Source: an uncultured virus (IMG/VR IMGVR_UViG_3300042447_000416)
Taxonomy: Duplodnaviria > Heunggongvirae > Uroviricota > Caudoviricetes
Strand: one strand, 5' to 3'
Length of the DNA stretch: 20,000 nt
Virus record (IMG/VR): IMGVR_UViG_3300042447_000416
Shown: in pieces, positions 2,098-20,000 of the stretch
Position numbering within the stretch: position 1 is the first letter of the stretch
Layout: the number at the start of each line of letters is the position of its first letter
The notes under the pieces: generated by a model
Database searches by the model: none
What the model saw: the letters and a program-made list of their open reading frames with translations, nothing else
Told to the model about the DNA's origin: nothing
Translations under genes and position numbers: made by a program

Positions 2098-3933
2098 TTA
2101 CGCCATCAAGTCGCCGTAGACAACCCATGTATTTGCTGCTCTCTTAAAGAGAGTACAAGATGACCAGGTTGTACGAAGCTTTAGGCCAGGTGTTGCGTTA
2201 ACTGTAACTGTTCCTGATACTGGGGCAATTGTTACTTGTCCAGCTCCAGTTTGAAGAATATCAATAGATGTTCCGATTGGGAAGTCTAGAGTTGCGTCTT
2301 CTGGTATTGTTAAGGTTAGAGGTGATCCTGATCCCATTTCGATTAGATCATCTCTTTCAGTTAGTGATGAAAGTGTATATGATGCTGTTTTTGCAACGAT
2401 TGGTGTTAAAGAATCTACCTTTAATCCAAGGCTGGTTGTTACTGATGCTGCAAAGTTTGCGTCATCTCCAAGTGCTTGAGCAAGTTCATCAAGTGTATTC
2501 ATTGCTGCTGGTGCACCAGATATAAGTGCGCTTACCTGTGATGTTGCGTCTGCAATTGCTTCAGATTTTGCTGTTGCGATTGCTGAAGACTGTGCTGTTG
2601 ATACTGGCTTATTAGCATCAGAAGTATTGTCAACATTTCCAAGTCCAAGTGTTGCTGGTGTTACTGCTGCAACCTCTGACTTAAGTGCTAGAAGTGCTGT
2701 ATCTGCAATTCCATGAACATTTGTAGTGTCTGCTTCATGGGCTGAAAGAGCGGTAGCTGCTGCTGTAATTTGTGTTTGAACTGATGATGTAACTCCATCT
2801 AGGTATCCAATTTCTGTTGAAGAAACTGTACCAATTGATGTTGTACTTGGAAGAGTTACTGTACCAGTAAATGTTGGTGAGGCCAAATCTGATTTAGCTG
2901 CAAGAGATGCACCTAGTCCAGAAATTTTGTCTTGGTGAATTGCTGCAGTAGCACTTACATGATCATTTGTAATTTGAAGATCTGCAATTTTTTCTGCAGT
3001 TATTGCATCAACTGCAATTTTATCTGCAGTTACTGCACCATTTAGAATTTTTACTGTAGATATTGCATCGGTTGCTAAATCTGCTGTTTCTACAGAGCCT
3101 GCAGGAAGTGTTACTGATCCTGTTACTGTTAAGTTAGTTAAGCCGATATCTGTTGCTGTAAGGTTTCTAAGCTCAAGATCATCTAGGCCTCCTTGGCTAA
3201 AATTAATTGTAGTGGTTGGTGCATCGGTTACTCCTGTAAAGAGTTTCCATTTATTAGCAGATGCATCTCTTGCAAATCCTGTGTGATTAGCAACTCCATC
3301 ATTGTGTTTAGCTACAAATCCTAGATCTAAAGCATTTCCTGCGTTGGTTGATGCTAATGCAATTAGTGGATCTTCTGTTGTAAAGTTAGCTGTATCTAAT
3401 GTTACAGTTGTTCCATTAACAAAAAGATTTCCAGCTAATGTTAAATTTTCTCCTGATATGCTTCCACTTGTTGAAATATCTGTTGCTAGTCCTGTTAGCT
3501 TTAATTGTGCCTCTGGAACCTTAATGTTTCCATCAAGTGAAGCAACACCATTTGCTGATCCACGATCTGAATTCTCTAAGTATGTGCTTGCTGTTGAATT
3601 TGTAAGTCCAGTTACTGCTGCATCAACATAGGCTACTGTTGCTACTACTGCTGAATCTACAGAAATTGTAATTGTATTTGCGCCATCATTATAAGTCTTT
3701 GTTAAACCTGCACCCATTGTAAGTGCTGTATTGATTGCGTCTTGTGAAATTTCTCCAATTTCAGGTGCATCTGCTGCTACGTAAGAAAGGGAATTCCATG
3801 CGGTGGATCCATCTCCAACTTTAATTTTTCTAGTGTTTGTTTCAACGCCTAGCTCTCCTGCTGCAAGTATTGGATTTACTCCAGACCAGTCTGTTGCTGA
3901 TCCTCTTCGAACTTGAATTCTTACTGTTGACAT
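2098..3933 (-). CDS. Tail fibre protein with Mtd_N-like N-terminal domain
   Basis: N-terminus RIQVRRGSATDWSGVNPILAAGELGVETNTRKIKVGDGSTAWNSL. Fibre motifs LGLGNVDNTSDANKPVSTAQ, GAPAAMNTLDELAQALGDDANF and ASPTFTGTV. C-terminal FPIGTSIDILQTGAGQVTI...WVVYGDL domain. Confidence 0.85.
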   Translation of the reverse strand: MSTVRIQVRRGSATDWSGVNPILAAGELGVETNTRKIKVGDGSTAWNSLSYVAADAPEIGEISQDAINTALTMGAGLTKTYNDGANTITISVDSAVVATVAYVDAAVTGLTNSTASTYLENSDRGSANGVASLDGNIKVPEAQLKLTGLATDISTSGSISGENLTLAGNLFVNGTTVTLDTANFTTEDPLIALASTNAGNALDLGFVAKHNDGVANHTGFARDASANKWKLFTGVTDAPTTTINFSQGGLDDLELRNLTATDIGLTNLTVTGSVTLPAGSVETADLATDAISTVKILNGAVTADKIAVDAITAEKIADLQITNDHVSATAAIHQDKISGLGASLAAKSDLASPTFTGTVTLPSTTSIGTVSSTEIGYLDGVTSSVQTQITAAATALSAHEADTTNVHGIADTALLALKSEVAAVTPATLGLGNVDNTSDANKPVSTAQSSAIATAKSEAIADATSQVSALISGAPAAMNTLDELAQALGDDANFAASVTTSLGLKVDSLTPIVAKTASYTLSSLTERDDLIEMGSGSPLTLTIPEDATLDFPIGTSIDILQTGAGQVTIAPVSGTVTVNATPGLKLRTTWSSCTLFKRAANTWVVYGDLMA

Positions 3934-6908: not shown

Positions 6909-9101
6909 TTATGCTATGGCTATAGTAGAATTAACAATAAACCAAGGTTCTGGGGAAGTTCTAATATCATAAACCTTTGAATCAAAATCATCTACTTCAA
7001 TTGATTCTACTACAATATTTGAGACTGACCCGCTTGAATCTACATTTATAATTACATCCCCAATATTAATATCTCCAGCATTTCTATATTCTATTCCTTC
7101 TGAATTTTTAATAAATATAGGCTGATTAATAGAATAGTTTTTACCAATTTTATTAAATCCAATTAATGTTGAAGTTTTTTCTGTTATAGAAACAACCTTT
7201 ACATTTGAAAATTCAATAACGGATGGTAATTCCTGTGATGTCTTATTTTGAGATACAGAATTAAGGTTTATGTTTGAACGGCTAATCGATATAAGGTCAT
7301 CTCCAACAAAAATATCTTTTGCTTTTACTAAACCATTTTTAGTAAAGACAAGTCCGTCTGGTGATATACAGGCTTTACCTCCCTTAAATGATGGTGGGAA
7401 GAACGGTGGAACGTTTGGTTCAAAAATTGGTGGGAAGAACGGTGGTATGCCACCATCGACTCCAAAACTTGGTGGGAAGAACGGTGGGAAGAACGGTGGG
7501 AAGAACGGTGGTGCAAAAACTGGTGCTGGGTCAGTTGATTGACATGCTGGATAACTTGTCCCAAACGAACACTGACGAGAGTAGCCGCTACCAGATGCGG
7601 ACGTGTCGGAACCAGGTTTTGTGTAGCTGCAATTACCTACGCCAGCTCCAGGACTAGAGGTTGTACAATGCCATTCGCTTTGTATGCCTATTGGTGCGGG
7701 ATCTGTTGATTGGCATGCTGGATATGTTCCAGTGTTGTTGTATATACACTGACGAGAGTAGCCGCTACCAGATCCTGAATTATCAAAACCAGGGGCTGTG
7801 TAACTACAGTTACCTACGCCAGCACCTGGAGAAGAGGTTGTGCAATACCATTGAGAAGCTGGTGCTGGGTTAGTTGATTGACATGCTGGATAAGTTGTTC
7901 CAAATGTGCACTGACGAGAGTAGCCGCTACCAGATGCGGAGTTATCAAAACCAGGGTCAGTATAACTACAGTTGCCTACGCCACCGCCGTTGGTAGAGGT
8001 TGTGCATTTCCATGTGTTTGGTGCTGGAGGATATGTTATGGTTACGGCTGGAGAAGAAAGCCAGGCGGTCTCTGTAAATCTTGGAGATGTTCCTATAATT
8101 AATACTACAAAAGATCCAAATGTATCTGGAGAAGCACCAGGTCGATCTATGTCTAAGAAATTAGTGCTAGGACTTGAAGATGCAGAGCTTGCATATACTG
8201 AACCATCATTGTACACTGTCCAACTAGTTACAGTTATGTTTGTAGCAGACCAAACCAATTTTCCTCCGTAACTGTAAGAAAGCATTCCTGCTGCAACTGA
8301 AGGTTTGTTTGGCTTTAAATCGGTAACCGATGCATTTTTGCCGTATCCGCTTAATGACGTTCCAGAAACATTGGATGTATTCAATGGATTAATTAATATT
8401 CCTAAAGTTCCTGAAGCGGATCCTGTGTCAATTGTAAATTTACATGTAGTACCTGATGTAGAATATACACCTTTTGCAGAATCTGTATTATTTACCATAC
8501 TAGTAACTTCTGTAAATGCTACTTCTGGTCCTTGGTATTGTATATAATAATCATTAGCGCCTTTTACTTTTTCCCATGTAAACTCTACTACGCCATTTGA
8601 CACAACATTAACAGTTATATCTCCTAAATTAGCGGGAGCAATTACTGGACTTGATAAGGTATATATATCTCCTGAATTTTTACCATCTGCATTAGTAGCC
8701 GAAACTTTACACCTAACCGCATAGCCAACATATTTTAATGTTTGTTGAGAATCCCATTCGTCTTCAGATAATGCCAAAGAGCTTGTTGTTTTATCAAGTA
8801 TGTTAGACCAATTAGATGTAGGATATGGAGCTTTTTGCCATTGATATTCAAATGTTGTTGGTGAATTTTCCCAAGTACCATTTGTTGTTAAAACTGTTTG
8901 TTCTGCAGCATAAAGAAATGATGAACCTTGCAAAGAAAGAGTTGGCAAAACTGTATTGACTGGAACTATTCCTAGTAGATTTTTCCACTCAGACCCATTC
9001 CAAACATAAGCCGCCTTAGAATCGTTCCAAGATGTTCCATCATGGATTTGAATCTTTTTTAAAGGATTCCAACTGGAACCATCAAAAATGTTTAGCGGCA
9101 T
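6909..9101 (-). CDS. Large virion/adhesin protein: Ig/FN3-like domains, three Cys-rich repeats, PPFF repeat, C-terminal Hint domain
   Basis: N-terminal (D/N)GxxW x3. Ig-like PVNTVLPT...NGTWENSPTTFEYQWQK...CKVSATNADG and FN3-like FTWEKVKGANDYYIQY. Hint begins CISPDGLVFTKNGLVKAKDIFVGD and ends VYDIRTSPEPWFIVNSTIAIA. Confidence 0.85.
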   Translation of the reverse strand: MPLNIFDGSSWNPLKKIQIHDGTSWNDSKAAYVWNGSEWKNLLGIVPVNTVLPTLSLQGSSFLYAAEQTVLTTNGTWENSPTTFEYQWQKAPYPTSNWSNILDKTTSSLALSEDEWDSQQTLKYVGYAVRCKVSATNADGKNSGDIYTLSSPVIAPANLGDITVNVVSNGVVEFTWEKVKGANDYYIQYQGPEVAFTEVTSMVNNTDSAKGVYSTSGTTCKFTIDTGSASGTLGILINPLNTSNVSGTSLSGYGKNASVTDLKPNKPSVAAGMLSYSYGGKLVWSATNITVTSWTVYNDGSVYASSASSSPSTNFLDIDRPGASPDTFGSFVVLIIGTSPRFTETAWLSSPAVTITYPPAPNTWKCTTSTNGGGVGNCSYTDPGFDNSASGSGYSRQCTFGTTYPACQSTNPAPASQWYCTTSSPGAGVGNCSYTAPGFDNSGSGSGYSRQCIYNNTGTYPACQSTDPAPIGIQSEWHCTTSSPGAGVGNCSYTKPGSDTSASGSGYSRQCSFGTSYPACQSTDPAPVFAPPFFPPFFPPFFPPSFGVDGGIPPFFPPIFEPNVPPFFPPSFKGGKACISPDGLVFTKNGLVKAKDIFVGDDLISISRSNINLNSVSQNKTSQELPSVIEFSNVKVVSITEKTSTLIGFNKIGKNYSINQPIFIKNSEGIEYRNAGDINIGDVIINVDSSGSVSNIVVESIEVDDFDSKVYDIRTSPEPWFIVNSTIAIA
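7393..7506. repeat. 12-bp GGTGGGAAGAAC repeats encoding PPFF
   Basis: Three tandem copies at 7471-7506 and single copies at 7393-7404 and 7429-7440. One base differs from the 12-mer at 1427-1462. Confidence 0.92.
7521..8012 (-). repeat. Three Cys-rich protein repeats (about 54-59 aa, 4 Cys each)
   Basis: WxCTTS(x)3GxGVGNCSYTxPGxDxSxSGSGYSRQC...YPACQST(N/D)PAP x3. An identical 27-bp core sits at 7570-7596, 7747-7773 and 7909-7935. Confidence 0.92.
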
Positions 9102-9111
9102 TTCAGGCTCC

Positions 9112-10605
9112 TTAGTATTGTATGTAAATATCTCCAGCAGAATTACCGCTTGCAGGTGGTGTTAAGCTTGTGCTATATGTAATTTTATTTATGTTAGCAG
9201 AAGAGCTTCCGTTAGTATATGTTCCGTTAATATTATTAGATGCAGCAGTGGTGGCAGCTGTAATAGATGATGTGATGGCTGATGGAATTGCAGACTCTAG
9301 TATTTTACCGTTTGAATCTAGCCCAGCATATCCATTATTTTCATTTCTTTCAGATTCTGGCTGGTACCCGCCTAATGAGTTATCAATACTATTTTTGGCT
9401 GTATCAGTATATGCTTTTGCTTCGGTTAAAGCGGCTGTAAGATTGGCAGAAGTTGCATATCCAGGAATTACTGGAGTTCCAGTAAATGTCGGCGAAGCAA
9501 TTGGAGCATAAGTTGTTGCTGCCAAGTCAGAAGACAATTTTGTTCCAACCAAAGTTGTTAATGTTGATGCACCAGTTTGATCTGATGCAATATAATCTGC
9601 AATTTCTTTAAGTGTATCAAATGAAGCTGGTGCCGCATTTACAACATTTGCTATTGCTGCAGAAATATCTGATGTTCTTGCTATGGAAGATGGAATCAGT
9701 GATAGTGGTATTAAAGCAGAAGCATCTAGTCCAGCTACGCCATTTAACATATTCCTATCTGACACTGGAATATATGCGCTAGAAATTTCTGTTCTTAAAT
9801 CATCTACAGCTGAAAGAGCAGCATTTAAAGAAGCAGTACGTGCAGCATTTGTTGCTGTAACAGCTCTTGCATTTGTAAAGTATAAATTAGTTCCTTCTGG
9901 TAATTGAGTTGTTGATGTAATTGGAGAAGGTACTGTAAAATTAGCTAATGAAGAGTCAACATAACTTCTGGTAGTAGTAATTAATGGGTCTACTATTGCT
10001 GATACTCTATTTGTTGTAAAATATAGGTTTGTTCCTTCTTCTATGTCTGAAGTAGTAATAAGATTAATTGCCGTGTTTATTTTTGTATCTGCAATTTGTC
10101 CCGCTAAAGTTACTGCGTTTGTAGATTTTGTTGTTGCATCTGCCGCTGCGGTAGTAATTGCTTCTTGGAATTTTGATGTTGTGTGTAAATTAGCTGAACT
10201 TAAAGCTTGTGCTGCAGATCCGTAAACATCAAAATATCCGTCTCCTGCAGTCCTTGCTCTTGCATTAGTAAAAAATAAATTTGTTCCTTCTAAAAGACTT
10301 GATGTTGTAAATGGACCAGAATTATTTATAGCATTTTGAATTGCCGTAGCGGCTTCTGTGTCTAAAGAAATTTGATCTGGTAATTGTGATAAAGGTATTT
10401 TGCCGTCAGAATTTAATGTAGCAATTCCATTTGCTTGTCCTGGTTTAAATGCATAGTTTGTAAGAAGATTCCATCTTTGGGTTCCGTTACCTATTTTAAA
10501 TTTAAGAGTATCAGTTTCTATTCCTATTTCACCGTTTAAAAGAAGTGGATTGTTCGCTGTCCAATTTGCTGCGGTGTCTCTTCTTAATTGAATTTTAAAT
10601 GCCAT
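9112..10605 (-). CDS. Tail fibre protein with Mtd_N-like N-terminal domain
   Basis: KIQLRRDTAANWTANNPLLLNGEIGIETDTLKFKIGNGTQRWN. EGTNL(Y/F)FT x3, NGxAxLxxxxxI x3, AAPASFDTLKEIAD and C-terminal GDIYIQY. Confidence 0.85.
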   Translation of the reverse strand: MAFKIQLRRDTAANWTANNPLLLNGEIGIETDTLKFKIGNGTQRWNLLTNYAFKPGQANGIATLNSDGKIPLSQLPDQISLDTEAATAIQNAINNSGPFTTSSLLEGTNLFFTNARARTAGDGYFDVYGSAAQALSSANLHTTSKFQEAITTAAADATTKSTNAVTLAGQIADTKINTAINLITTSDIEEGTNLYFTTNRVSAIVDPLITTTRSYVDSSLANFTVPSPITSTTQLPEGTNLYFTNARAVTATNAARTASLNAALSAVDDLRTEISSAYIPVSDRNMLNGVAGLDASALIPLSLIPSSIARTSDISAAIANVVNAAPASFDTLKEIADYIASDQTGASTLTTLVGTKLSSDLAATTYAPIASPTFTGTPVIPGYATSANLTAALTEAKAYTDTAKNSIDNSLGGYQPESERNENNGYAGLDSNGKILESAIPSAITSSITAATTAASNNINGTYTNGSSSANINKITYSTSLTPPASGNSAGDIYIQY

Positions 10606-11060
10606 TATGAATTACCTCCATCTAGTGATGGTGCGGCAAAGTCTTCTGACCCACCGCCACCTAAAGTTTCTTCTTCTGTTACTGCTGTTCCATCAAATAA
10701 TCCTGCGTCAAATAATGTTTCATCAACAAATGAAGGCTCATTTAAATTACTCATTGGGTTTCCTCCATCGTATCCTATAATTTGTGGTAAAACTGTTGCT
10801 GGTGTATCGGGATTAGATAATGATTTAAAATCAACTTGATTTTGAATATCAATCGTATGCACATCTCCATCAAACGTGTGTGTATGCATATAAAATGGAG
10901 TTGGATCTGTACTTGGTGGTGTTAATTCTATCCATGTAGTTCCATTGTGAACACGTAAATTTTTAGTTACGGTATTAATGTATATTTCGCCGACTTGTCC
11001 AAATACTGGGTCTGCTGACAGGGCCAGAAGTTTAAGTGGTACCAGCATCTGTCTTGACAT
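10605..11060 (-). CDS. Putative tail-associated virion protein
   Basis: GEIYINTVTKNLRVHNGTTW fibre-type motif and DGG motifs. Translationally coupled (TAATG) to the downstream fibre gene. Confidence 0.65.
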   Translation of the reverse strand: MSRQMLVPLKLLALSADPVFGQVGEIYINTVTKNLRVHNGTTWIELTPPSTDPTPFYMHTHTFDGDVHTIDIQNQVDFKSLSNPDTPATVLPQIIGYDGGNPMSNLNEPSFVDETLFDAGLFDGTAVTEEETLGGGGSEDFAAPSLDGGNS

Positions 11061-12843: not shown

Positions 12844-12884
12844 AAAAAGAAAATACCCTTACACTATTTTAGCATAAGGGCATT
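12844..12884 (-). terminator. Intrinsic terminator after the holin, containing an extended -10 element
   Basis: Minus-strand AATGCCCTTATGCTA-AAA-TAGTGTAAGGGTATT (15 bp, 3 G-U) followed by TTCTTTTT. TGCTAAAAT (12866-12874) spans the loop. Confidence 0.7.
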
Positions 12885-12900
12885 CCCAATTGACTAATAA

Positions 12901-16305: not shown

Positions 16306-16498
16306 TTTAGAAGATAACCTGCCTATGGTTAACTATATAATGCTACACAGAATTTATGATTTACTAAGTCTTATTTCAAATAAAATAGTTGGATCGGAAG
16401 ATACGCAAAAAATGGTATCTTATCACGAAGCAGGGTACTTACTTGGGCCAGTTCCATCATTTTCACCAGCAGAAGATATAGATGATATCAAGAACTAA
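16274..16498 (+). CDS. Hypothetical protein
   Basis: ORF in the tightly packed plus-strand operon, SD-like GGTGG upstream, core LEDNLPMVNYIMLHRIYDLL. Exact start uncertain. Confidence 0.65.
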   Translation: MQEDQKTETNNLEDNLPMVNYIMLHRIYDLLSLISNKIVGSEDTQKMVSYHEAGYLLGPVPSFSPAEDIDDIKN

Positions 16499-17111
16499 TG
16501 TCTGGGCCAATGACGAAGACTTTAAAAAATGTTTTAAAGAATTTATGGCTATAGGAAATTTTGATAATTCTATAGAAGACCCAATTAATGAAAGGCTTTA
16601 TGTTTTACAACAATTTGCAAAAAGACAGCAGAGGCTAAATTCTAACTTTGTCGAAATAGGTGTTTATGCTGGAATGTCTATGTATTTTATGGCAGATTAT
16701 TGCAAAAAAATATTTGTAGGAATAGATTCATTTGAGGGTGTTTCGGAGCCAACCCCAGGAATAGATACTAATTATTTTGTTAAGGGTTCTCTATCCTGTG
16801 ATATTTCAAATGCAAAAAATTATTTAAATAAGTTTAACAATGTTGACTTACTTAAAGGTTGGGTTCCCGATGTTTTTAGTTTACTCCCAGAACTAGAATA
16901 CTCTTTGGTACACATTGACGTTGACCTTTACGCCCCTACAAAACAATCTATAGAATATTTTTGGGACAGATTGCTGCCCGACGGGGTTCTAATTTGTGAC
17001 GATTTTGGCTCAAGCAAAACCGTTGGGGCAAAAAAAGCAATGGTAGATTTTTTTGGAAGAGAAAACATAATTGAATTTAGTACGCAGCAGGCTTTTGTAA
17101 TTAAGCGTTGA
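16482..17111 (+). CDS. TylF/MycF/NovP-family SAM-dependent O-methyltransferase
   Basis: FVEIGVYAG, GIDSFEG, KGWVPD, LVHIDVDLYAPT and LLPDGVLICDDF motifs. Confidence 0.88.
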   Translation: MISRTNVWANDEDFKKCFKEFMAIGNFDNSIEDPINERLYVLQQFAKRQQRLNSNFVEIGVYAGMSMYFMADYCKKIFVGIDSFEGVSEPTPGIDTNYFVKGSLSCDISNAKNYLNKFNNVDLLKGWVPDVFSLLPELEYSLVHIDVDLYAPTKQSIEYFWDRLLPDGVLICDDFGSSKTVGAKKAMVDFFGRENIIEFSTQQAFVIKR

Positions 17112-17136
17112 CTTAATTCTGATAATATATTATAAT
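17108..17136 (+). promoter_or_regulatory. Near-consensus sigma70 promoter
   Basis: TTGACT (17108-17113), 17-bp spacer, TATAAT (17131-17136). Confidence 0.8.
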
Positions 17137-17142
17137 TAATAT

Positions 17143-17221
17143 TCAGGTTGAGATTGTAAAATTTCCCTGATTGCATGAAGATGCACAAACCCCTTACGGA
17201 TCCGCCTCTGTAGGGGGTTTG
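17143..17221 (+). ncRNA. Putative small structured RNA (three adjacent hairpins)
   Basis: Starts 7 nt after the -10. TCAGG-tt-GAGATT[GTAA]AATTTC-CCTGA; TGCAT[GAAG]ATGCA; CAAACCCCTTACGGA[TCCGCC]TCTGTAGGGGGTTTG. Confidence 0.6.
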
Positions 17222-17242
17222 CATGATATAATATATATTACT

Positions 17243-17386
17243 ATGGTGCACCATTTTGCTAACTTTATGAGAAGTCCACAATTCACTCATCCTCAAGTAT
17301 GTAAGGATGACTGTAAGCTTAAACACGGTAATAAAAATCATCAATCAAAATTTGAAAAATTTTTAAAAAGAATAGTGGGTAAATAA
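17243..17386 (+). CDS. 47-aa His/Cys-containing hypothetical protein
   Basis: ATG 17243 follows its own TGATATAAT (17224-17232). MVHHFANFMRSPQFTHPQVCKDDCKLKHG...; stop overlaps the next ATG (TAATG). Confidence 0.55.
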   Translation: MVHHFANFMRSPQFTHPQVCKDDCKLKHGNKNHQSKFEKFLKRIVGK

Positions 17387-18234
17387 TGTTTTACGACAGA
17401 GAAGACTGTATAAAAGCTTCATTTTTCCCAGATGATTACGGCACACAAAGCGGAGTGTTTATATTTAAAGGATTTTATACAGACGAAGAGTGCAAGACTG
17501 TAGAAGACGAGTTAAAAGATTACGATCTGAAACAAAAATATAGAGATACTTTAATCAGCTGGTATTCTAATAAAATTAGCCCCCCACTTGCTTCCATACA
17601 TCCACTTTGGGAAAAGGCAAGCGAGCTTTTGTATCCAGAGTATGTTATGCATCCTCAAGGCAACGTATTAATTATTACCCCAGAAATGAACGAGGGAATG
17701 TTTACACACTCTGATTCTCCTGGGAAAGGAGAATGTCACAGACTTTCCCAAGTAGACGTTTGGAAAACTTGTTGTGAATTAGATTTTGGCTTAGTTGCAT
17801 ATTTTGGAGATTTTGAAGGCGGAGAAATATTTTACGTAAACATAGACAAAGACGGAAACAGATCTGAAGGAGTTCCCGCAGCAAATAATTTAAAAATAAA
17901 GCCAGAAAGAGGAGATCTAATAATTCACGGGGCATTTTCGCCACACGCTCACGGAGTTAATCCAGTCACATCTGGTAGAAGATATGCTTTCTCAAACTTT
18001 GTGTTAAAGGCAGAAGATAATCCTGGATCTTTTTATAACTACAAGACTCCAGAGTACTATGAGCAAATTAAAGATAAAGATAATCTTACGCTAGAAGAAT
18101 TTACTGCCATATGGATGAAACCACTAAAAGAAAATCCTCAGTTTAGCAGAGATAGAATTCAAAAGTATCAGGCTTCTGGTCTAGAGGGTATAGAGCTATC
18201 TGATGCATATATGGGTGAATTTAAAGAACATTAA
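17386..18234 (+). CDS. 2OG-Fe(II) oxygenase superfamily protein
   Basis: GMFTHSDSPG (HxD), YFGDFEGGEIFY, KPERGDLIIH and distal HGVNPVTSGRRY. Confidence 0.85.
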   Translation: MFYDREDCIKASFFPDDYGTQSGVFIFKGFYTDEECKTVEDELKDYDLKQKYRDTLISWYSNKISPPLASIHPLWEKASELLYPEYVMHPQGNVLIITPEMNEGMFTHSDSPGKGECHRLSQVDVWKTCCELDFGLVAYFGDFEGGEIFYVNIDKDGNRSEGVPAANNLKIKPERGDLIIHGAFSPHAHGVNPVTSGRRYAFSNFVLKAEDNPGSFYNYKTPEYYEQIKDKDNLTLEEFTAIWMKPLKENPQFSRDRIQKYQASGLEGIELSDAYMGEFKEH

Positions 18235-19362: not shown

Positions 19363-19914
19363 TTATATAAATTCCCGTCCTGCCGCAGCATATTGTCTTG
19401 TAAGAAAATCCTTTAATATATCATTACTCATAAAAATAATAGAAAATTTGGCTTGTAAATTTTCAACAGAATGGTCTTTGCCTTTTTTAAACCATACAAC
19501 ATCTCCAGCGTTTAATATAATTTTTGTTTCAAACTGTATTGAATCTGTTGGATTATCATAAAAAGTCCATTCTGATTTTCCCATGCATTGCCAATGTATT
19601 ACATCGGATTCATCTGAATGTTTAGTTGTTCCCTCCCCATCAATCCGTCCCTCTATAATTAAAGGTGTAGTTTTTACGCCATAGGTATTTGAGCATTCAT
19701 TTATAAAATTACTTACATTTTCGTTTTCAAGAAAATATTCAGGCAACTTTTTCATTGAAGCCAGAGATTTACCATCATCACTATTATTTACATCGGGCCT
19801 CCAGCTAAATGCTTTATCAAATAAAGATGCATCTGGTGGAGTAGCATAATTTCTAAATACTACGTAGTTATTTGTGTCAAGGATTGTACGTGCTTCTTTA
19901 GAATTTATTTTCAT
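19363..19914 (-). CDS. JmjC/cupin-fold oxygenase-like protein
   Basis: TKHSDESDVIHWQCMGKSEW (HxD) and LNAGDVVWFKKGKDHSVEN (distal His), as in Cupin_4/JmjC hydroxylases. Confidence 0.75.
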   Translation of the reverse strand: MKINSKEARTILDTNNYVVFRNYATPPDASLFDKAFSWRPDVNNSDDGKSLASMKKLPEYFLENENVSNFINECSNTYGVKTTPLIIEGRIDGEGTTKHSDESDVIHWQCMGKSEWTFYDNPTDSIQFETKIILNAGDVVWFKKGKDHSVENLQAKFSIIFMSNDILKDFLTRQYAAAGREFI

Positions 19915-19920
19915 TTATTA

Positions 19921-19929
19921 ATTATACCA
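19921..19929 (-). promoter_or_regulatory. Extended -10 promoter (TGGTATAAT), leaderless
   Basis: Exact TGnTATAAT 6 nt upstream of the ATG at 19914. Confidence 0.7.
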
Positions 19930-20000
19930 GTATATATTTTAGTTGACTGCTATTTAAGATTTATCAAAATGTTAATAAATTTTTAATTTGTATGATACAC

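Follow-up and report, generated by a model that had tools for sequence, protein, structure and literature searches.

Comparative evidence for a conserved, single-copy structured RNA in uncultured AT-rich lake phages

The last 20 kb of the 35.7-kb viral record IMGVR_UViG_3300042447_000416 (an uncultured member of the Caudoviricetes, rated 33% complete, 36.8% G+C), a stretch of 20,000 nucleotides referred to here as the window, contains close to position 17,143 an element which sequence comparison identifies as a real, conserved small structured RNA of about 80 bases, carried in single copy by uncultured AT-rich lake phages of about 100-120 kb. It is probably a stand-alone small RNA that acts in trans and extends from 17143 to about 17222-17230 on the plus strand; from the features described below we infer the exact ends of the transcript, its trans action and its partner. 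An original prediction, made from the letters of the window, had already proposed a stand-alone small RNA at this place, and the proposal is strengthened by covariation, by strand asymmetry, by a promoter kept at a fixed distance, by the presence of a single copy, by the lack of any Rfam or tRNA match and by the convergent genes or tRNAs that lie downstream of the element in some relatives.

Folding of positions 17143-17221 (+) with ViennaRNA gave three abutting hairpins of the kind originally described, and the minimum-free-energy and centroid structures were the same. Hairpin 1 (17143..17170, +), which is supported by both the fold and conservation, consists of an outer stem of five pairs (17143-17147 with 17166-17170), a UU bulge (17148-17149), an inner stem of six pairs (17150-17155 with 17160-17165) and a GUAA loop (17156-17159). 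Hairpin 2 (17172..17185, +) reads UGCAU-GAAG-AUGCA, and hairpin 3 (17186..17221, +) has a 15-bp stem and a UCCGCC loop at 17201-17206, forming the apex GGA-UCCGCC-UC. The plus-strand fold has a predicted energy of -38.3 kcal/mol compared with -19.0 +/- 3.0 kcal/mol for shuffled sequences (z -6.44, with none of 200 shuffles as good), and the minus strand folds more weakly (-26.5 kcal/mol, z -3.06).

Relatives were sought in IMG/VR with the protein of a 2-oxoglutarate-Fe(II) (2OG-Fe(II)) oxygenase gene that lies downstream of the element, and then with a loose DNA pattern made from two conserved motifs. The protein search yielded 57 loci at 49-100% identity, every one of which has a TCCGCC motif no more than 330 nt upstream of the 2OG gene, and a covariance model of the family (R1) matched all of the 38 distinct sequences from these oxygenase loci with the exception of one divergent group (L059). 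The pattern found at least 119 further IMG/VR stretches, from which 80 loci were fetched, and R1 scored between 50 and 96 bits in 42 of them; among the pattern loci without a family match nothing exceeded 17 bits, apart from one other hit, a 31-bit match to the opposite strand in L090. In the window itself R1 matches 17138..17229 (+) with 87 bits (E about 1e-15), which is the sole match of at least 50 bits, and the minus strand scores 16 bits.

The family set assembled from the oxygenase loci and the fetched pattern loci comprises 57 distinct sequences of 71-101 nt. When a plain MAFFT alignment was analysed with RNAalifold, 21 pairs were found, 14 of them with compensatory changes. The model-based alignment likewise has changes on both sides in 14 of 21 pairs and 95.0% of its cells paired, as against 74.8% after shuffling, figures that are biased towards the structure to which that alignment was fitted and with which the MAFFT-based count agrees. 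The covariation score was 0.578 compared with 0.217 for shuffled alignments, none of 500 shuffles being as high, and controls in which the pairing partner was slid along the sequence reached 0.171 at most. The original prediction had argued for the plus strand from three G-U pairs, which are present in the window fold (one in hairpin 1 and two in hairpin 3), and across the family there are 105 G-U or U-G cells compared with 12 A-C or C-A cells. Because of this asymmetry, and of the 87 bits that R1 gives to one strand and the 16 bits that it gives to the other, the RNA is read from the plus strand, which is also the strand of the promoter described below.

Two other explanations of the element were considered and set aside. 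A protein-coding explanation is rejected by the variation in length among family members (71-101 nt, with insertions and deletions that are not multiples of three) and by an in-frame stop codon between the element and the small open reading frame (ORF) in 40 of 41 cases. A repeated element is rejected by copy number: five phage records between 98 and 120 kb in length, of which four are rated 100% complete, have exactly one copy each, and there is one only in the 35.7-kb record from which the window is taken. The pattern scan was extended to species-representative bacterial and archaeal genomes, where it found 95 stretches; among the 80 of these 95 that were fetched, only one (L206, 65.6 bits) was a true family member. 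It belongs to a 19.6-kb contig that is phage-like, has the RNA in the gene order seen in these phages and had been binned into a Bacteroidia metagenome-assembled genome. The binning is probably an artefact and Bacteroidia are not taken as the host, a host of that kind being disfavoured by the Shine-Dalgarno sequences of these phages and by their promoters, which are of sigma-70 type. As far as a search with an exact pattern can reach, the RNA is specific to phages.

The pattern of conservation within the three hairpins is uneven. The outer stem of hairpin 1 covaries freely (for example CAGG/CCUG, ACGCUAG/CUGGCGU and GCGUUAG/CUAACGC), and the UU bulge together with the adjoining G-C and A-U pairs is invariant or nearly so in the 57 distinct sequences. 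Hairpin 2 is an optional and variable module: it is missing from L071, L073, L093, L104, L108, L127 and L145, among others, and where it is present the relatives have at least nine other self-complementary stems with four-base loops in its place. In hairpin 3 compensatory changes are found in 11 of the 15 pairs, the G-C and A-U pairs that close the loop are identical in all 57 sequences, and the loop is always UCCGCC. In the divergent group that R1 missed (L059-L061) the UCCGCC loop is present but closed by other pairs, the small ORF is of the typical kind and there is no UU-GAG bulge motif.

Several readings of these parts did not survive comparison. The invariance of hairpin 2 in the clade to which the window belongs might be taken as the mark of a DNA operator, and this was rejected because the wider family swaps or drops the stem. 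The bulge is not a K-turn, the pairs that follow it being Watson-Crick and not sheared G-A, and a CsrA-type GGA site was dismissed on the grounds that there is a single GGA, that it is paired and that the L059 variant has none. A bulge followed by G-C and A-U pairs is presumably comparable to the bulge region of retroviral TAR RNAs, a likeness offered as a lead and not as a test. The original prediction had further suggested that GCAT at 17221-17224 can pair with ATGC at 17181-17184 in competition with hairpin 2. The letters are there as described, and the competing pairing is rejected since it does not covary: no pair is changed on both sides, and the C-G pair, one of the four, is broken in 11 of 36 sequences. 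The attenuator that had been put forward as the alternative to a small RNA consequently finds no support.

The promoter (P1, 17108..17136, +) is found where it had been predicted, with a -35 box TTGACT at 17108-17113, a 17-nt spacer and a -10 box TATAAT at 17131-17136, and it scores 11/12 in a promoter scan. Its -35 box overlaps the TGA stop codon of the upstream methyltransferase gene, 6 nt lie between its -10 box and hairpin 1, and its position predicts that transcription would start at about 17143. A scan of the whole window found 74 such sites as against 70.9 +/- 8.0 expected from shuffled sequence, a difference that is not significant, and P1 is no evidence by scan alone because the window holds as many sites as its shuffles. 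What distinguishes it is conservation at a fixed place: in the 57 distinct relatives a sigma-70-like promoter ends 2-14 nt before hairpin 1 with a score of at least 9/12 in 44 and of at least 10/12 in 34, the corresponding frequencies at 9000 random positions in related loci being 5.1% and 0.7%.

The other end of the RNA differs between clades. Outside the window's clade 19 of the 25 distinct sequences have a U-tract, defined as at least six T among eight consecutive nucleotides in or beyond the 3' arm, and for this reason hairpin 3 looks like an intrinsic terminator there. In the window no U-tract follows, so that hairpin 3 goes unlisted in a terminator scan. In the clade of the window an extended -10 box, UGCAUG(A/C)UAUAAU, takes the place of the U-tract; in the window this box (P2, TGATATAAT, 17224..17232, +) lies 10 nt before the ATG of the small ORF, and it is the separate extended -10 that had been noticed ahead of the next ORF. 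A TGnTAnAAT box follows hairpin 3 in 45 of the 57 distinct sequences. The small ORF is the next gene in 41 of the 45, its ATG mostly 6-10 nt behind the box, from which it follows that its message would be leaderless or nearly so; three relatives have the ATG 27-28 nt behind the box and a GGAGG Shine-Dalgarno sequence, and in four the oxygenase gene comes directly after the box. As an observation in its own right, UGCAUG(A/C)UAUAAUAUAAUUACUAUGG after hairpin 3 is conserved within the window's clade far more tightly than a -10 box needs, though the small ORFs differ.

Two lake-water metatranscriptomes, the only RNA runs in which any of the region was found, available as contigs only and each sharing 0.08 of the sampled words, cover 17255-17675 and 17897-18194, and thus the regions of the small ORF and the 2OG gene; from 17255 to 17431 one contig has the same sequence as the window. 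In the two studies there are contigs whose first bases lie at 17255 and 17261, with no loose ends, and this hints weakly at a start of messages close to the extended -10 box.

The arrangement of genes around the RNA varies, and the RNA is independent of any one downstream gene. The order RNA, small ORF, oxygenase is found in the window's clade and in two of the large relatives (G002 and G004), the order RNA, oxygenase, small ORF in another (G003), and in G005/L075, L125, L146 and L149 the small ORF comes first and is followed by the RNA and then by a convergent oxygenase-like gene. Protein genes converge on the 3' side of the RNA in L075/L192, L080, L125, L131, L146 and L149, those in L080 and L131 being ORFs. 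L071 is the most distant relative (its oxygenase is 49% identical) and has a perfect 12/12 promoter, a clear U-tract and no hairpin 2; there the RNA abuts convergent tRNA-Lys and tRNA-Asn genes (L071 2673-2899). Because convergent genes or tRNAs follow the RNA, a leader of a downstream gene cannot explain L071, L080, L131 or the arrangements in which the small ORF comes first. A riboswitch or attenuator would lie always upstream of, and co-oriented with, the gene that it regulates, and such a constant relationship is not what is seen. The gene upstream of the element differs among the oxygenase loci, which indicates that the element travels with the genes downstream.

Comparison with catalogued RNAs was made for the window and for its relatives. 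Rfam 15 gave no match in the 20-kb window at gathering thresholds, in accordance with the earlier claim that the RNA is uncatalogued, and at permissive settings the best match was His_leader (RF00514) with 25.5 bits against a gathering score of 49, a sub-threshold match that is attributable to the terminator-like shape. The two have in common a hairpin followed by a long G+C-rich terminator-like hairpin; they differ in that the lake-phage element has no leader peptide with His codons, and the match is absent from the loci of 12 relatives. Those 12 loci have no Rfam family in common, the only matches above threshold being two tRNAs in L072, and there was no match to the Rfam families 6C or RsaE. 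That the element is not tRNA-like, as had been stated, accords with ARAGORN, which finds no tRNA or tmRNA gene in the window or in the whole 35.7-kb record. A literature search for the apex sequence returned three papers that contain it, none of them relevant, prior description having otherwise been sought only in Rfam and in a review that tabulates phage small RNAs (PMC12197685). The RNA is a family that is not present in Rfam and belongs to none of the known families against which it could be checked, and the closest kind of known RNA is the phage small RNA with its own promoter and terminator.

The mechanism proposed is as follows. Host RNA polymerase would start at the near-consensus sigma-70 promoter, with hairpin 1 at or next to +1, and the transcript would present two invariant recognition surfaces on freely covarying stems, namely the bulge region of hairpin 1 and the UCCGCC loop of hairpin 3, with the variable hairpin 2 as a spacer that can be dispensed with. 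Outside the window's clade, hairpin 3 and its U-tract would in most relatives be the RNA's own intrinsic terminator as well. The RNA would then act in trans through the invariant C-rich loop, either by pairing with a target rich in G, for which a GGAGG(C)GGA stretch of Shine-Dalgarno type in an mRNA of the host would be an example, or by being bound at that loop by a protein, and the bulge may constitute a second recognition site, of protein type, for which the adjacent small basic protein is a candidate partner. No conserved single-stranded stretch of useful length exists apart from the UCCGCC loop, and a role for the C-rich loop as the functional surface, as originally suggested, would fit its invariance. 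That it is specifically a base-pairing seed is a tentative proposal, to which we give somewhat less than even weight. The complement of the apex, when extended into the closing pairs, contains a Shine-Dalgarno-like GGAGG, and the host can be expected to read Shine-Dalgarno sequences of the GGAGG type because the structural genes of the phage use them.

A number of observations weigh against a stand-alone RNA acting in trans by pairing. An exact match to the apex complement occurs in five phage genomes at the RNA gene itself only, and when up to two mismatches are allowed there are 8-15 matches per genome as compared with 11-18 for a reversed-pattern control, so there is no enrichment. The bias of the model-based pair counts, mentioned above, belongs here too. 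The RNA almost always adjoins the small ORF and the 2OG gene, which would equally suit a role in cis or one specific to that module. The original prediction of a 3' end at about 80 nt, and of a promoter that serves the RNA alone, is less secure for the window's own clade, which has lost the U-tract of hairpin 3: none of its 32 distinct sequences reaches six T in eight. With the U-tract degenerate the 3' end is undefined in that clade, and read-through into the small ORF is possible. Finally, no metatranscriptome contig from the two runs lies over 17143-17222, contigs of this sort being unable to show transcript ends; the missing contigs neither support nor refute the RNA, as such libraries usually lose short species.

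An important consideration is whether the element might instead be a cis-acting leader of the small-ORF/2OG operon, working by antitermination or attenuation and deciding whether polymerase from P1 passes hairpin 3, with the adjacent small basic protein or another factor binding the invariant bulge or loop. We think this unlikely, though with an appreciable chance of being correct. The small ORF and the 2OG gene adjoin the RNA in almost every relative, one or other of them follows it directly in 45 of the 57 distinct sequences, and the position of the TCCGCC motif close upstream of the 2OG gene in 57 of 57 loci is what would be expected of a leader, as is the location of hairpin 3, terminator-like in the majority of relatives beyond the window's clade, after a strong promoter and before the genes. 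The invariant bulge and loop-closing pairs resemble protein recognition sites, and the small protein has a basic C-terminal tail. In lambdoid phages there are promoter-proximal antitermination RNAs, such as nut, with the boxB hairpin that N binds, and the put sites of HK022, and the lake-phage RNA resembles them, by position only, in that an early-type promoter is followed first by structured hairpins whose loops or bulges are sequence-specific and then by a terminator-like hairpin. The likeness ends there, however, as the sequences are not similar, no protein resembling N was identified for the lake-phage RNA, and several relatives have nothing downstream to read through to: in L075/L192, L125, L146 and L149 the small ORF is upstream of the RNA and the next gene is convergent, and the two convergent tRNAs of L071 and the convergent ORFs of L080 and L131 leave nothing to be regulated. 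Moreover, the downstream gene is fed in 45 of 57 sequences by the separate conserved extended -10 box, just past which the contigs of the two metatranscriptome studies begin (a weak hint), and no alternative pairing shows covariation.

It has also to be asked whether the RNA forms a ribonucleoprotein together with the small basic protein, and perhaps with the 2OG oxygenase too, in which it serves as a scaffold or decoy and not by base-pairing, and this we consider improbable. The RNA, the small ORF and the 2OG gene are shuffled in order and yet remain adjacent, which is typical of functionally linked genes, two invariant structured features suited to recognition are carried on variable stems, and no complementary target is found in the phage genomes searched. 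Against this, the UU-GAG bulge motif is missing from the L059-L061 group, in which the UCCGCC loop and a typical small ORF are nevertheless retained, and the tail of the small protein is lysine-rich and not arginine-rich. A bolder reading, which we rate as very improbable, would unite the RNA with the small basic protein, itself made from a leaderless message, and with the prolyl-hydroxylase-like 2OG oxygenase in a single module by which the phage takes over the translation of its host, the RNA being a decoy of the anti-Shine-Dalgarno tail. A strongly transcribed decoy would soak up host messages led by Shine-Dalgarno sequences, or a factor that binds the tail, and leaderless phage messages would be favoured. 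Several early-looking genes of this phage appear to have messages of that sort, namely the 2OG gene at 63-776, the JmjC-like gene at 19363-19914 and the small ORF. The sole support for a decoy is the resemblance of the apex GGAUC-CG-CCUC(C/U) to the 3' tail of 16S rRNA, which ends ...GGAUCACCUCCUUA as given in PMC11162774. Hardest of all to credit is the suggestion that these are bare transcription signals, the terminator hairpin of the upstream gene happening to sit between two promoters. Hairpin 3 is indeed terminator-like in most relatives outside the window's clade, and the weak His_leader match stems from the same shape. The loops and closing pairs of terminators are not, however, normally invariant, and here GGA-UCCGCC-UC is unchanged in 57 sequences although it sits on a covarying stem; hairpin 1 with its invariant bulge is conserved as well, and so is the RNA's own promoter, and the window's clade retains hairpin 3 despite the loss of the U-tract.

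A stand-alone small RNA acting in trans, the reading preferred here, has counterparts among RNAs already described. Phage small RNAs with their own promoter and terminator include lambda OOP (77 nt), P22 sar (68/69 nt), P1/P7 c4 (77 nt), lambda PreS and StxS (PMC12197685). As far as that tabulation describes them, the lake-phage RNA resembles all five in being phage-borne, about 70-100 nt in length and provided with a dedicated sigma-70 promoter, and in ending, in most relatives outside the window's clade, with a U-tract hairpin. It differs from them, to the same extent, in that it is not antisense to a neighbouring gene, has no sequence or model similarity to them (Rfam), comes from large uncultured lake phages of lytic type and not from temperate enterobacterial phages, and has its conserved single-stranded element in the loop of the terminal hairpin. 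A second comparison is with base-pairing small RNAs described as directing C-rich hairpin loops at G-rich ribosome-binding sites, namely RNAIII and the Rsa RNAs of Staphylococcus aureus, with a UCCC motif (PMC2790875), and mycobacterial 6C RNA (PMC6486639). With these, so far as the cited accounts go, the lake-phage RNA shares a C-rich loop on a stable hairpin as the most conserved single-stranded element, together with an apex complement that contains the Shine-Dalgarno-like GGAGG. It departs from them, within the same accounts, in having one C-rich loop only, UCCGCC in place of UCCC or CCCC, and no Rfam match. Membership of the class of C-rich-loop small RNAs would call for at least two such loops and a match to a family model, and the RNA has neither.

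Lytic and uncultured phages have supplied few of the small RNAs known so far. About two dozen phage small RNAs are tabulated in the review cited above, nearly all of them from cultured enterobacterial, staphylococcal, Vibrio, Pseudomonas and cyanobacterial systems (PMC12197685). The lake-phage element provides a clean case for comparative genomics, being a single-copy RNA gene with its own promoter, strong covariation and two invariant surfaces, and its fixed companions are a tiny, probably leaderless protein and a 2OG oxygenase, in a whole clade of abundant lake phages without a cultured relative. An 80-nt RNA with a six-base loop may offer a concrete handle on the early effects of these phages on their hosts, and the RNA is ready for deposit as a new RNA family.

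Among the neighbouring genes, the one immediately upstream (16482..17111, +) is a TylF-like methyltransferase gene by domain match, a variable neighbour that lies outside the conserved module, and further upstream are a lysozyme-like gene and two small ORFs. The small ORF downstream (17243..17386, +) encodes 47 aa, is apparently leaderless or nearly so, and has the conserved N-terminus MxxxHFxKxMxSPxF and a basic C-terminal tail, which is lysine-rich rather than arginine-rich. No Pfam, PHROG or protein-atlas match was found for it, and a search for more loci with the small ORF returned only contigs that were already known. Across its family the protein has 44-56 aa, with an invariant Met and Phe and a near-invariant Pro in the SPxF motif, and its gene always adjoins a prolyl-hydroxylase-like 2OG-Fe(II) oxygenase gene, in varying order and orientation; the small protein may be a substrate or partner of the neighbouring oxygenase. 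In the window the latter (17386..18234, +) encodes 282 aa and matches PF13640 with E 9.8e-5, which is below the curated cut-off, and phrog_61 with E 1.9e-9.

Elsewhere in the window are genes for a class II ribonucleotide reductase and for tail fibres headed by Mtd_N, along with another two oxygenase-type genes. Three ORFs, at 2098-3933, 9112-10605 and 10605-11060, open with an Mtd_N (major tropism determinant N-terminal) domain; there was no reverse transcriptase Pfam hit among the ORFs scanned, no search aimed at a diversity-generating element having been made. The ORF at 859-2064 has a fibronectin type III domain together with weak, sub-threshold Hint/intein-like hits, and of all terminator-like sites in the window the strongest, at 12849-12887 (-) with 18 pairs and then a T-run, lies between the block of tail genes and the next gene. 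No cultured phage was matched by the 1.9 kb around the element (blastn) or by a 730-aa tail protein and the 2OG protein (tblastn), and the class II ribonucleotide reductase gives a 65% match to Streptomyces phages that is uninformative on the host. The three oxygenase-type genes in the 20 kb (63-776, 17386-18234 and 19363-19914) comprise two with 2OG-FeII_Oxy_3 hits and one with a JmjC_2 hit. Most of the structural genes of the phage have an AAGGAG or GGAGG Shine-Dalgarno sequence. Three genes have none, namely the small ORF, the JmjC-like gene on the minus strand (19363-19914) and the minus-strand 2OG gene (63-776), and each has a TGnTAYAAT extended -10 box 6-10 nt before its ATG (in the stretches 17224-17245, 19914-19940 and 776-800 respectively), which suggests that there is a class of leaderless messages in this phage.

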